64,000 nt of DNA from a virus, in the UHGV virus genome UHGV-0179803; one strand, given 5' to 3'. Position 1 is the stretch's first letter. Each line of letters begins with the position of its first letter. The notes under the pieces are model-generated. The model did not search any database. It was not told the origin of the DNA and worked only from the letters and a program-made list of their open reading frames with translations. This document shows, in pieces, positions 9,095 through 42,614 of the stretch. The position numbers and the translations under genes were made by a program.

Positions 9095-9550
9095 TTATTC
9101 AAAAAGTAGCTCTACGTGGTGTAAAATAAGCATTAATTGCATTAACACAATGACAAGAACTACCCAGTTGGCTTTATTATTAACAATTTTACGAATCTTT
9201 TCAGAACGTGATTCAGGTAGAGATCTCAGGATACGCTCTACTGAACGATTCATATCACGGATAGCCATTTTAAAACTGTCCGATCCTTCATCTTGCTCCG
9301 TAACCACGTCGAAAGCACAGTCTTTAGCGTTACCTCCAGAACCACGAGTCACAATGAGTCGATACATTGACACAGAATAATGTGTATTCGACTCAGCGTC
9401 ATAGATGCTGAGAACTTCTTTGGTATGGTCAATTGCTGATGAAAGTTTAATCGCACCAGCTGTCGTCTCAATTTTACCAGCCTCAAGGAGCATTAACCAA
9501 TGCTTTTTATCCAGATTCTCAAGACTAGATCTGACGTACTTCACAAACAT
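9095..9550 (-). CDS. tail-anchored membrane protein
   Basis: 151 aa with C-terminal hydrophobic helix WVVLVIVLMQLMLIL. Confidence 0.4.
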   Translation of the reverse strand: MFVKYVRSSLENLDKKHWLMLLEAGKIETTAGAIKLSSAIDHTKEVLSIYDAESNTHYSVSMYRLIVTRGSGGNAKDCAFDVVTEQDEGSDSFKMAIRDMNRSVERILRSLPESRSEKIRKIVNNKANWVVLVIVLMQLMLILHHVELLFE

Positions 9551-9763
9551 TTAATCCTCCTTGCCGAAAGTTAAAAAGAAGTTAAAATCATCAATCCAGT
9601 CCCAATTAGAGCGGATCATAGGCCACGATTTATCACCATGCTCAACATTGTGGGCGCGATAGTCCATCTCCCACACATCAATTAGCTGGTGCATATACTC
9701 TTTAGCCTGCTCAAGAGACATGTTGTCAGGATCAATTTTTGTAATGTCAATCATCTTCATCAT
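9551..9763 (-). CDS. hypothetical protein
   Basis: 70-aa ORF. Confidence 0.35.
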   Translation of the reverse strand: MMKMIDITKIDPDNMSLEQAKEYMHQLIDVWEMDYRAHNVEHGDKSWPMIRSNWDWIDDFNFFLTFGKED

Positions 9764-12514: not shown

Positions 12515-12540
12515 TCAAAAAAGCCCTCCGAAGAGGGCTT
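12515..12540 (-). terminator. rho-independent terminator
   Basis: minus-strand hairpin AAGCCCTC-TTCG-GAGGGCTT followed by TTTTTTGATC, directly after the ClpP-like gene. Confidence 0.6.
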
Positions 12541-12553
12541 AGCGTTATGTTAA

Positions 12554-13567
12554 TCAGCCCAGCAATTTATCATGAAGATCTTTGCCAGCTTTGATGATTT
12601 TTTTAACCAGACGACCACGGTTGTTGTCTTTAACTTCAATTTCTTCACCAGTTAAAGCACCGTGTAACTGAACCAGAATCTCACGGAGTTCTGCAACAGT
12701 GAAGTCTTTCAGCTCTTCTTCACTTAACGTTGCAACGTTCAGTTTAAAGTTACGACCATCGTCCATCAGCAGATTCAGATAAACATCTTTCGGTTTATCT
12801 TCTTCCTTGTCTTTAGCTTTCGCTTCATGGATAGCTTTTACCAGTTCTTCCATAGAATTGCATTGACGAACTTCCGGTAAACCTTCTTCACCTAACAAGC
12901 CACGGTCTTTGTTGAAAGGCAGAGCCTGCTGACCAGCCTGAATACGTGCAATATTCTCTTCGTCAAGGATGATTGCACCAGTGCGTTCAGCCATGTCTTC
13001 TTCGTTCAACCAGACCTGACCACCACCTTTAATTTTCGCAATCTCTTCTTCAGTCAGAACACCAGTGTACATTTTATCAATCAAGCGATCAAAATGACGT
13101 TTGAAGAAAGTTACCTGATCGTGCATGTTAGCACCGTCACCATAAGTCCCGCCCTGGTAGTTATGGAACATGAATTCACAGTTCGGAGACAAAGTACGTT
13201 CTTTTGCACCTAACCACAGAATAGTACCAGCAGAGCAGACCATACCTTCAGCGTGAGTAACTACATGGCCCTGAGATTCACGCATTGCTTGGAGATAAGC
13301 CATAGCAATGTTAACGCAACCCCCTGGGCTATTGATGATAATTCTAATAGAATCATCAGGTTGCAGCATACGAATCAGTTGTAAACGAGATAGATGGTCC
13401 TGAAGGTCTTCTAAGTCATCAATATAGATGACATGATCCATAACCGGAGCAGGATAGCTGTATGTTTCCATGATGCCACCAGGCATACCGAACATTTTGT
13501 TCTGCATCGGTTCTACTGCTTTCTCGTTGCGTTCAGGCTGACGACGATTGTTATAAAATTTGTTCAT
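12554..13567 (-). CDS. ClpP-family serine peptidase with C-terminal extension
   Basis: IIINSPGGCVNIAMAYLQAM...MVCSAGTILWLGA...FMFHNY matches ClpP (S14) core; likely ATG 13567 (MNKFYNN), GTG at 13609 possible. Confidence 0.7.
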   Translation of the reverse strand: MNKFYNNRRQPERNEKAVEPMQNKMFGMPGGIMETYSYPAPVMDHVIYIDDLEDLQDHLSRLQLIRMLQPDDSIRIIINSPGGCVNIAMAYLQAMRESQGHVVTHAEGMVCSAGTILWLGAKERTLSPNCEFMFHNYQGGTYGDGANMHDQVTFFKRHFDRLIDKMYTGVLTEEEIAKIKGGGQVWLNEEDMAERTGAIILDEENIARIQAGQQALPFNKDRGLLGEEGLPEVRQCNSMEELVKAIHEAKAKDKEEDKPKDVYLNLLMDDGRNFKLNVATLSEEELKDFTVAELREILVQLHGALTGEEIEVKDNNRGRLVKKIIKAGKDLHDKLLG

Positions 13568-34128: not shown

Positions 34129-34243
34129 GGGCCATTATTTGGCCCTTAGAATTCAGTTTAAGGGCCATTATTTGGCCCTTGGAAGCGTTTTAAGGGCCAT
34201 TATTTGGCCCTTGGATTGACTTTTATGGGCCATTATTTGGCCC
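34129..34243. repeat. four direct copies of 17-bp palindromic iteron GGGCCATTATTTGGCCC
   Basis: copies at 34129-34145, 34162-34178, 34194-34210, 34227-34243, spaced 32-33 bp; each has internal dyad GGGCCA/TGGCCC. Confidence 0.8.
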
Positions 34244-37221: not shown

Positions 37222-37250
37222 TTGACAATGTTGAGTTAAAACGCTATACT
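37222..37250 (+). promoter_or_regulatory. sigma70-type promoter driving a non-coding segment
   Basis: TTGACA 37222-37227, 17-nt spacer, TATACT 37245-37250; no ORF of note in the next ~170 nt. Confidence 0.45.
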
Positions 37251-37257
37251 TACAGTG

Positions 37258-37420
37258 TTCCCCATAGAGGGCTTGATAGTGCACCACACTGAAAAATGGT
37301 AGGAACGTAGAGGGCTACGGACGCGTAGGGTTCCAGCAACCTGTAATAAGGTCGAGTCCAAGTACGGTAATGGCTTCCCCTTTCCCTTCGAGGGCTTGAA
37401 AATGCCAGAGACGGACTGGC
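37258..37420 (+). ncRNA. candidate small RNA / tRNA-like remnant
   Basis: promoter-proximal non-coding stretch with three GAGGGCT repeats and AGGTCGAGTCC..GTACGG resembling the T-arm/acceptor 3' half of the adjacent tRNA-Arg; no full cloverleaf found. Confidence 0.25.
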
Positions 37421-37482
37421 AATCTATTGACAATCTCCAGAGTACGTGATAAACTCAGCTTATTAACTATTCTGGAGGTTAT

Positions 37483-37830
37483 ATGGTGGACAAAAAAGAG
37501 AAAGCGAAAAAACGTCGTCGCAGGGGCAGACCCCTGAAAGAGGAATCAAACGCTATTCAACTTGATAAAAATCTTATTGAGATGAAAGAAGCGTTCATTG
37601 CAATGGTTCCAGAGGCACACAAAGTTCTCCGCGATATGATGAATAACCCCAAAACGAAAGAAAACATTCGTCAGGGCATAGCAACATACGTTCTGGAGAA
37701 AGCTGCTGCCATGCAGGAAGAGTACGACGAAATGTTCGGGGAAGAGGAAGAAGAATCTACTGTTGTAGATGCGACCCCAACACCGTTCTCTCCGTTTACT
37801 ACAGAGATTATCCCGATCAACGATCAGTAA
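37483..37830 (+). CDS. basic DNA-binding protein (possible terminase small subunit)
   Basis: N-terminal KKEKAKKRRRRGRPLKE basic tract, acidic C-terminus; lies upstream of packaging genes; positional inference only. Confidence 0.3.
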   Translation: MVDKKEKAKKRRRRGRPLKEESNAIQLDKNLIEMKEAFIAMVPEAHKVLRDMMNNPKTKENIRQGIATYVLEKAAAMQEEYDEMFGEEEEESTVVDATPTPFSPFTTEIIPINDQ

Positions 37831-37899: not shown

Positions 37900-37975
37900 G
37901 CCCCGTTAGTTCAAATGGAAGAACAGTGGCCTTCTAAGCCATAGGTTACAGGTTCGAGTCCTGTACGGGGTGCCA
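37900..37975 (+). tRNA. tRNA-Arg (anticodon TCT)
   Basis: cloverleaf by hand: acceptor GCCCCGT/ACGGGGT, D-arm GTTC-AAATGGAA-GAAC, anticodon stem GTGGC/GCCAT with loop CTTCTAA, T-arm ACAGG-TTCGAGT-CCTGT, discriminator G, encoded CCA. Confidence 0.85.
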
Positions 37976-42586: not shown

Positions 42587-42614
42587 AGCCCTCTTCGGAG
42601 GGCTATTTCTTTTG
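42587..42614 (+). terminator. rho-independent terminator
   Basis: AGCCCTC-TTCG-GAGGGCT hairpin followed by ATTTCTTTT. Confidence 0.65.

Follow-up and report, generated by a model that had tools for sequence, protein, structure and literature searches.

The species 1 and species 2 RNAs of T4 (rnaC and rnaD) are stable and released by processing. Hepatitis delta virus (HDV)-like 'theta' ribozymes have been found beside phage tRNAs, and GOLLD and ROOL are phage-borne, highly structured and pseudoknotted RNAs that often adjoin tRNA genes. Cryo-electron microscopy structures of both GOLLD and ROOL are homo-oligomeric complexes (PMC12286853). Here we describe an element in a 64,000-nucleotide (nt) stretch of the virus genome UHGV-0179803, the whole of which we call the window and which is a distant relative of the rV5-like (Vequintavirinae) coliphages. 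With slightly more confidence than doubt, and on the strength of sequence comparison, we read positions 37257-37420 as encoding a small structured RNA that stands alone, belongs to an uncatalogued family and would bind a conserved partner. An earlier note on this segment had proposed a small regulatory or non-coding RNA behind a strong promoter; this proposal holds up, and the comparisons below extend it to a widespread, covarying family.

Conservation and covariation of the core

Sensitive blastn aligned window 37257-37373 at 79% identity with a gap of rV5 that carries no annotation (NC_011041 63359-63472), where the gene order is the same as in the window: gp071 homologue, element, promoter P74, ORF74 and tRNA-Arg. 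A shorter part, 37328-37373, recurs at 83-95% identity in hundreds of T4-like phages (among them Tequatrovirus, Mosigvirus and Jiaodavirus), with a core of 35-46 nt, ACCUGUAAUAAGGUCGAG..CGGUAA, that corresponds to window 37339-37370. A 301-nt query matched 921 of 50,697 phage records, and with pattern scans of IMG/VR and metagenome contigs included, the total comes to 91 copies in 28 sequence clusters. The copies also occur in ~46-kb contigs resembling Klebsiella phages such as KP591P1, in contigs of ~39-43, 70, 75 and 100 kb and in one 17-kb contig; in KP591P1 itself the covariance model of the family, R1, did not find the element. On the R1 scale, family members score 55-70 bits and background at most 24 bits, and the sole copy in the window (37333-37378) scores 67.6 bits with E = 3e-21. 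The window copy has the core that defines the family, ACCU.U...AAGGUC(G/A)AG-P5-CGGUAA, together with the covarying helices P4 and P5 described below. The core of the RNA measures ~95 nt, the size of the minimal form of L036 type, and 170-300 nt with lineage-specific parts. Identity of 83-95% over 35-46 nt across unrelated groups (T4-like, rV5-like, ~46-kb Klebsiella phages and uncultured lineages) implies a strongly constrained interaction, and the partner is probably something common to these hosts.

The family matches no catalogued RNA in the collections that we searched. With Rfam 15 (4227 models), no family was found in the window segment at the gathering score or at E up to 10, and no Rfam match overlapped any of 14 copies (window, T4T, Metamorpho, rV5, L023, L273, L036, L280, L298, L274, L283, L322, L308 and L300; L numbers denote loci) at permissive limits of E up to 10 for the window, 5 for the first four loci and 1 for nine further loci. 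The earlier note had named two observations that would count against a functional RNA, silence of the covariance models and lack of conservation; the known models do match nothing, and the region is strongly conserved nonetheless. Searches by gene name, topic and sequence string found no description in the literature open without subscription, and the main text of a catalogue of 10,006 phage RNA candidates does not mention the element (PMC10690425). When host mimicry or prophage copies were sought in 5,426 complete E. coli genomes, blastn returned zero matches at E up to 10. An over-loose pattern applied to bacterial contigs gave chance matches among those listed, and R1 made no credible match in the loci fetched, a result that does not establish absence from bacteria; the best bacterial candidate among the matches listed (L205, 24 bits) lies inside an open reading frame (ORF) that we take to be TraG-like.

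Covariation supports a defined fold. We aligned 54 distinct cores (alignment A3) and tested a structure anchored on the fixed bases alone, in which P4 pairs xxx-N-ACC with GGU-AA-N'-(G)-x'x'x' and P5 is G-N4...N11-C. For P4 and P5 together, 95.1% of cells are paired compared to 79.8% in shuffles, and the covariation score is 0.376 compared to 0.096 in shuffles, a value reached by 0 of 500 shuffles; slid controls gave at most 0.067. The N-N' pair of P4 is A-U in 35 cores, U-A in 9, U-G in 6 and C-G in 4, without a single mismatch over the 54, and the next two pairs show five and three pair types. In P5, the second pair N4-N11 takes all four Watson-Crick types over the 54 copies (C-G 46, U-A 3, G-C 2, A-U 1, plus U-G 1). 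Thus, P4 and P5 covary in all lineages.

In the T4-like copies, covariation extends to P1 and to a pseudoknot that ties the internal loop of P1 to the 3' tail, which we tested in 24 Jiaoda-type copies (alignment A4). The central pseudoknot pairs are formed in all 24, one as C-G 15, A-U 6 and G-C 3 and the other as G-C 15 and C-G 9; one P1 position shows G-C, C-G and A-U, and the whole structure scores above 500 of 500 shuffles and above every slid version. Read directly across lineages, P1 is GGGAA:UUCCC in T4, AAAGG:CCUUU, AAAGC:GCUUU and AAAGA:UCUUU elsewhere, GGAAC:GUUCC in the window, GGGG:CCCC in rV5, GAAC:GUUC in L036, GAAUG:CAUUC and GAGUG:CACUC in L083 and L098, and GUGG:CCAC in L274. 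The pseudoknot likewise reads AUCGU:ACGAU in L036, AAACC:GGUUU in L273, ACCAA:UUGGU in L280 and CCAGCA:UGCUGG in rV5. From the window to rV5, the P2 hairpin changes both bases in four of its five stem pairs and keeps the GACG loop.

A further helix, P3 (UGUAA:UUACA), directly follows P4 in the T4-like, L023 and L026-type copies, and a compensatory series is seen in L085, L275 and L284 (UGUGA:UCACA, UGUGA:UUACA, UGUAA:UUACA). As a universal helix it was rejected, since in a search-based test the mean of 9.1 did not differ significantly from the 8.7 of shuffled strands, and we keep P3 for the T4-like, L023 and L026-type copies alone. A pairing of the 5' GUUCC with GGAAC was ruled out because GUAUC stands there in L272, L033 and L303. 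Of the helices described here, RNAalifold returned the nested P1 and P4 alone; its other predictions were a small hairpin on the 3' side and a GGU:GCC mini-hairpin that has no support. The single-sequence minimum free energy of the segment is ordinary (z = +1.27), so the evidence for structure is comparative rather than thermodynamic.

Among the best-supported pairs, G-U is common and A-C almost absent, which points to selection on the RNA of the element's strand. This pattern bears on the possibility that the segment is a short protein gene or a DNA-level site for recombination, homing or replication, a reading to which we attach next to no weight. In its favour, the T4 annotation starts vs.8 inside the element, and a 65-residue ORF lies on the - strand of the window. 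However, compensatory changes that use G-U and almost never A-C argue for selection on one RNA strand. In close relatives, 1-nt indels shift the open frames of either strand, including the longest ones of the segment, which lie on the - strand, and in HX01 a stop interrupts the T4 vs.8 frame ahead of the real start. Furthermore, the PHROG profile of Vs.8 leaves out the first 38 residues and aligns from M39 of the T4 annotation. The earlier note had seen no credible ORF in these ~170 nt, and indeed the + strand holds none of at least 20 residues inside 37251-37426.

In T4T (HM137666.1, ~64770-64895 on the minus strand; L002 1469-1590), the copy lies between denV and vs.8, and the annotated vs.8 start (L002 1496-1609) falls within it. 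The PHROG match from M39 and the in-frame stop of HX01 make it probable that the first 38 codons of vs.8 are mis-annotated. T4 ranks with the best-studied genomes; the element is nevertheless unannotated there, and an annotated gene start crosses it.

Several copies carry additions or variants. On a 177-kb T4-like contig (L276 5093-5249, -), two copies stand in tandem; the upstream one has the canonical core (61.8 bits), and the second is divergent (32.5 bits), with AAGGCCAG for AAGGUCGAG and GCC for ACC, and keeps the T4-type 3' extension. Two distant copies, L280 8300-8440 (-) and L298 3420-3540 (+), have a common extra 3' domain, UCUAGCYUCGARAUGURG...GUWACGGC, whose GCCUCGA/GCUUCGA is complementary to UCGAGGC of the core; this suggests that the RNA is larger (~200-300 nt) or that its invariant segment can pair in another way. 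Copies L036 8140-8274 (-) and L273 7820-7905 (+) have in common a conserved non-coding stretch upstream of the core (GUCCCGUAAAAGAAAGA, a hairpin and CGACUAAACAAACAAUUACCCGACAAGGAAUUGUA).

Expression signals, tRNA neighbours and possible modes of action

The element is linked to tRNA genes, which in the 91 loci are all on its strand. For the majority of lineages outside the T4-likes, 46-1183 nt separate the element from the closest tRNA gene (530 nt in the window); in T4-like phages the tRNA cluster is at ~6 kb. The element lies within the tRNA cluster in L023 and L300, and begins 25-45 nt past a tRNA 3' end in L308 and L322. It also has the signals of a gene: the window promoter TTGACA-17-TATACT is kept in all eight distinct window-type relatives, a TATAAT box or promoter stands directly upstream of the copies in L280 and L298, and an intrinsic terminator directly follows those in L036 and L273 without overlapping the fold. 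A separate promoter lies between the element and the next gene in both the window and rV5. In L298, the element is the sole + strand feature, in a 350-nt gap of a - strand operon, and a purely cis-acting role is hard to reconcile with this orientation. In the window, none of the proteins neighbouring the element has a known function.

From these data, the favoured course of events would be as follows. The RNA would be made early from its own near-consensus sigma-70 promoter, in the window as a transcript that continues into a small ORF and the phage tRNA-Arg gene, and would be released by cutting from the tRNA-containing transcript and then work in trans. Its ~95-nt core, common to rV5-like, T4-like and several other tailed phages, would fold with P1 closed around the P2 hairpin and the pseudoknot joining the P1 internal loop to the 3' tail. 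P4 and P5 would then frame the conserved, mostly unpaired ACC, UGUAAUAAGGUCGA and GGUAA, and the helices would keep these bases in a fixed shape, recognised by or acting on a conserved partner common to these enterobacterial hosts or phages, most plausibly one from tRNA or translation metabolism. We infer the stability, processing and trans action of the RNA, and the nature of its partner, from this pattern.

A different course, which we consider improbable, would be a cis-acting leader that controls the downstream genes as the aptamer of a riboswitch sensing a ligand, as an operator bound by protein, or as an element for antitermination or stabilisation. A frame of covarying helices around conserved unpaired bases is typical for aptamers, the T4-like copies have a conserved 3' extension and always stand 10-40 nt before a start codon, in most cases the one of vs.8, and the window copy is directly behind a strong promoter with an ORF and a tRNA following without a terminator. 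However, both L298 neighbours are on the opposite strand, the separate promoters of the window and rV5 intervene, and the terminators of L036 and L273 do not overlap the fold. The downstream genes vary by lineage and a switching alternative pairing was not found. Of the features expected of a riboswitch or leader (constant upstream position, same strand, expression platform), the position alone is seen, and in the T4-like copies.

The element could also belong to a new class of self-cleaving ribozymes or other self-processing elements and define the RNA ends in polycistronic tRNA/mRNA transcripts, an option to which the sequences lend little credence. The compact pseudoknotted fold with ~20 conserved unpaired bases, and the helix order P1-PK-hairpin-P1'-domain-PK' (PK, pseudoknot) as in HDV-like ribozymes, would fit such an activity, as would the copies within tRNA clusters, those 25-45 nt past a tRNA 3' end, and the tandem copies of L276. 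Against it, the Rfam ribozyme families are unmatched at the permissive limits given above, and the counterpart of HDV P3/L3 is a hairpin of 4-8 base pairs (bp) with variable tetraloops in which P1.1 cannot form. A conserved cleavage-site context ahead of P1 was not found, and dedicated promoters and terminators fit a plain RNA gene. More broadly, it is possible, if unlikely, that the element represents a new functional class, either a self-cleaving ribozyme processing phage tRNA operons or a decoy or aptamer for a host factor of defence or tRNA handling; any of these three would be a new class. The idea of a sponge for CsrA, with GGA in hairpin loops, was set aside as speculation, as the motif recurs and its positions are not conserved.

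Returning to the small RNA that acts in trans, several observations weigh against it. The copies were collected with exact patterns fixing the core (ACCU.U...AAGGUCGAG and CGGUAA), so the invariance of the core is partly built in, and an rV5-like copy found by another route (L334) has a GGUCAAG variant. P3 crosses P4, and joint formation leaves very short linkers; the two may be alternative rather than simultaneous pairings. In the window copy, UGUAA is without an obvious P3 partner and the pseudoknot is a possibility that contains G-U pairs. Expression and RNA ends of the window element are predicted from sequence, and no terminator was found after this copy; here the element could be a mere 5' leader. 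The position of the T4-like copies before a start codon, with a 3' extension specific to their lineage, also suits a cis-acting leader, and the proposed link to tRNA or translation metabolism comes from gene neighbourhood alone.

The loci that carry the element hold further features near the tRNA genes. In L083, L098, L277, L281 and L300 (contigs of ~46-70 kb resembling Klebsiella phages), a repeat of the form ~CAGTGCYNTTWYCGTTGTGRNGAAA borders the element, and likewise further small non-coding units close to the tRNA cluster; it may be a phage-specific promoter or processing signal. The ~97-kb phage contig of L273 also bears a group I intron at 12784-13079 (Rfam RF00028, 54 bits) and an ORF-poor region at 6.4-8.0 kb with tRNAs and tRNA-like fragments. 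The tRNA cluster upstream of the element in L098 includes a suppressor-type tRNA with anticodon CUA (9535-9610; labelled tRNA-Pyl by ARAGORN). Finally, an unannotated tRNA-like gene lies between tRNA-Ser and tRNA-Thr in L001 (rV5, 4154-4250) and L020 (1714-1812), with an Rfam tRNA score of 35.5 bits and a 4-base anticodon according to ARAGORN.

Layout of the window copy and its resemblance to a tRNA

All parts of the window copy are on the + strand. The near-consensus promoter reported earlier is as described: a sigma-70-type TTGACA (37222-37227) and TATACT (37245-37250) separated by 17 nt match the consensus at 11 of 12 positions, and the site is joint-best on the + strand in 34-41 kb. From its spacing, transcription would start at ~37256-37258. 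The 5' module of the rV5/window lineage (37258-37301, GUUCCCCAUAGAGGGCUUGAUAGUGCACCACACUGAAAAAUGGUA) contains the first GAGGGCU and an ACCA..UGGU hairpin; in alignment A2, the window-type and rV5-type versions of this module are almost the same, while most paired positions of the neighbouring helices have changed. It was rejected as an independent element, as pattern matches away from the core were chance matches in coding DNA.

The fold itself begins with the 5' strand of P1, GGAAC (37302-37306), which pairs with GUUCC at 37330-37334 (the rV5 counterpart being GGGG:CCCC). The candidate 5' strand of the pseudoknot, GUAGAGGG (37307-37314), contains the second GAGGGCU, and its AGAGGG can pair with CCCUUU at 37378-37383, the candidate 3' strand; both are read from the sequence. 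In the window lineage this pseudoknot is weakly supported, its equivalent has formal support in Jiaoda-type copies, and in L036, L273, L280 and rV5 it was recognized by eye. The P2 hairpin, CUACG-GACG-CGUAG (37315-37328), corresponds to CACAU-GACG-AUGUG in rV5-type copies. The 5' strand of P4, AGC-A-ACC (37335-37341), pairs with GGU-AA-U-(G)-GCU (37366-37375), the 3' strand being placed by the covariation test. Between them lie the mostly invariant joining segment UGUAAUAAGGUCGA (37342-37355), which contains the T-arm-like part, and the P5 mini-hairpin (37356-37365), in which G-U ... A-C closes a 6-nt loop and the second pair is the one that varies across the 54 copies.

The 3' module (37384-37420) consists of CCCUUCGAGGGCUUGAAAAUGC, in which the 5' module motif is repeated with the third GAGGGCU, and a hairpin, GCCAG-AGACGGA-CUGGC. 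In window-type relatives the stem is GCUGG:CCAGC instead of GCCAG:CUGGC, with two pairs changed on both sides, and by eye it resembles GCCA:UGGC of the T4-like copies. The element is limited downstream by the next promoter, TTGACA-17-TAAACT (37427-37455), which serves a 115-residue ORF (37483-37830) and tRNA-Arg (37900-37975). Because a terminator is absent, the window transcript must run on past 37427-37455 into this ORF and tRNA-Arg.

The three GAGGGCT copies noted earlier are present at 37267, 37310 and 37390, among 16 in the whole window compared to 5.6 expected. An internal duplication, TAGAGGGCTTGATAGTGC (37265-37282) and TCGAGGGCTTGAAAATGC (37388-37405), accounts for two of these three, and 0.1 such matches are expected. 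The remaining one, in 37307-37314, is a candidate purine-rich pseudoknot strand and would not be part of the duplicated module. GAGGGCT/AGCCCTC inverted pairs at 12522-12539 and 42587-42604, likely hairpins or terminators, account for part of the heptamer excess. Elsewhere in the window, a series of TTGACA-17 promoters, most with a TG-extended -10, each stand ahead of a small ORF between 35524 and 40575 (35524, 36609, 36860, 37427 and 40547), an arrangement that resembles an early region in which every gene has its own promoter. At 34140-34215, three overlapping terminator-like hairpins arise from the repeats TGGCCCTT..AAGGGCCA, each followed by TTATTTGG.

The 3' half of the segment had been compared with the T-arm and acceptor of tRNA-Arg. 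The likeness exists in the window, where AGGTCGAGTCCAAGTACGG aligns with AGGTTCGAGTCCTGTACGG of tRNA-Arg over 19 matched columns, and drops to 12-18 columns in relatives because the extra matches sit on variable, covarying bases of P5; the resemblance is thus coincidental. A degenerate tRNA or a tRNA-derived recombination remnant, the other proposals made in the earlier note, is barely credible. GGUCGAG does look like a T-loop short of one U, and tRNA genes adjoin the element. However, ARAGORN finds tRNA-Arg 37900-37975 only, the Rfam tRNA model (RF00005) has no match in 37250-37430 even at E = 10, and the covariation-supported helices form a pseudoknotted fold and no cloverleaf. Moreover, decay would not leave 83-95% identity across phage families. 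As readings of the segment, a tRNA remnant, a coding gene and a DNA site are all effectively excluded.

Comparison with known RNAs

HDV-like ribozymes have the same helix order as the element, but its P1 is 4-5 bp compared to their 6-7, and their dispensable P4 sits where the conserved bases of the element are. The features that mark membership of that class, i.e. a nested double pseudoknot, a 3-bp P3, a P1.1 between L3 and J1/4 and a catalytic C in J4/2, were not found together in the element. Its hairpin at the place of P3 has 4-8 bp and loops GACG, UAAC, AAUA, GAAA or GAUUAU, and the bases after P1' are GCCA, CCCU, AGCA or AACUA and not GG as in HDV-like ribozymes. Pseudoknotted riboswitch aptamers likewise resemble the element in having covarying helices around invariant unpaired bases within a compact ~100 nt. 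In contrast to them, neither a constant downstream gene nor an expression platform accompanies the element, one copy runs antisense to the genes around it, and no ligand is suggested.

Two modules that handle tRNA were also compared. In RNase P, T-boxes and the L1 stalk, tRNA elbows dock on the double T-loop. Its invariant pattern is AGNNA ... UGNNA (PMC3664808). The element resembles it in a UGNNA pentad (UGUAA), a T-loop-like GGUAA/GUCGA and the company of tRNAs; the module was rejected, as AGNNA is absent among the conserved bases and UGUAA becomes UAUAA in L036 and L273 and UGUAG in L098, L272 and L274. The invariant ACC and GGU recall the pairing of the tRNA 3' end (RCCA) with the GGU motif of RNase P RNA, and a GCGGUAA string is common to the element and RNase P RNA. 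As a bacterial RNase P RNA the element was nevertheless rejected: no Rfam RNase P model matches it, and R1 does not match E. coli rnpB (L324).

The positional features of rnaC and rnaD, i.e. a place on the tRNA strand in or beside a phage tRNA cluster, are found in the element as well, which is like them a small non-coding RNA candidate on the tRNA strand; the copies in the tRNA clusters of L023, L300, L308 and L322 are placed in the same manner. In T4 itself, unlike rnaC and rnaD, the element is ~6 kb from the tRNA cluster. Homology was rejected, since the sequences are unlike when read and R1 matches nothing in the T4T tRNA region (L270), and rnaC ends in a tRNA-like T-arm and acceptor, which the element is without. 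GOLLD and ROOL are several hundred nt long compared to the ~95-nt core, and the Rfam models of both are unmatched. In kind, the element comes closest to species 1 and 2 of T4 and to GOLLD and ROOL, which are much larger, with homology to none of them, and it is a small and tractable addition to this set of unexplained tRNA-associated phage RNAs.

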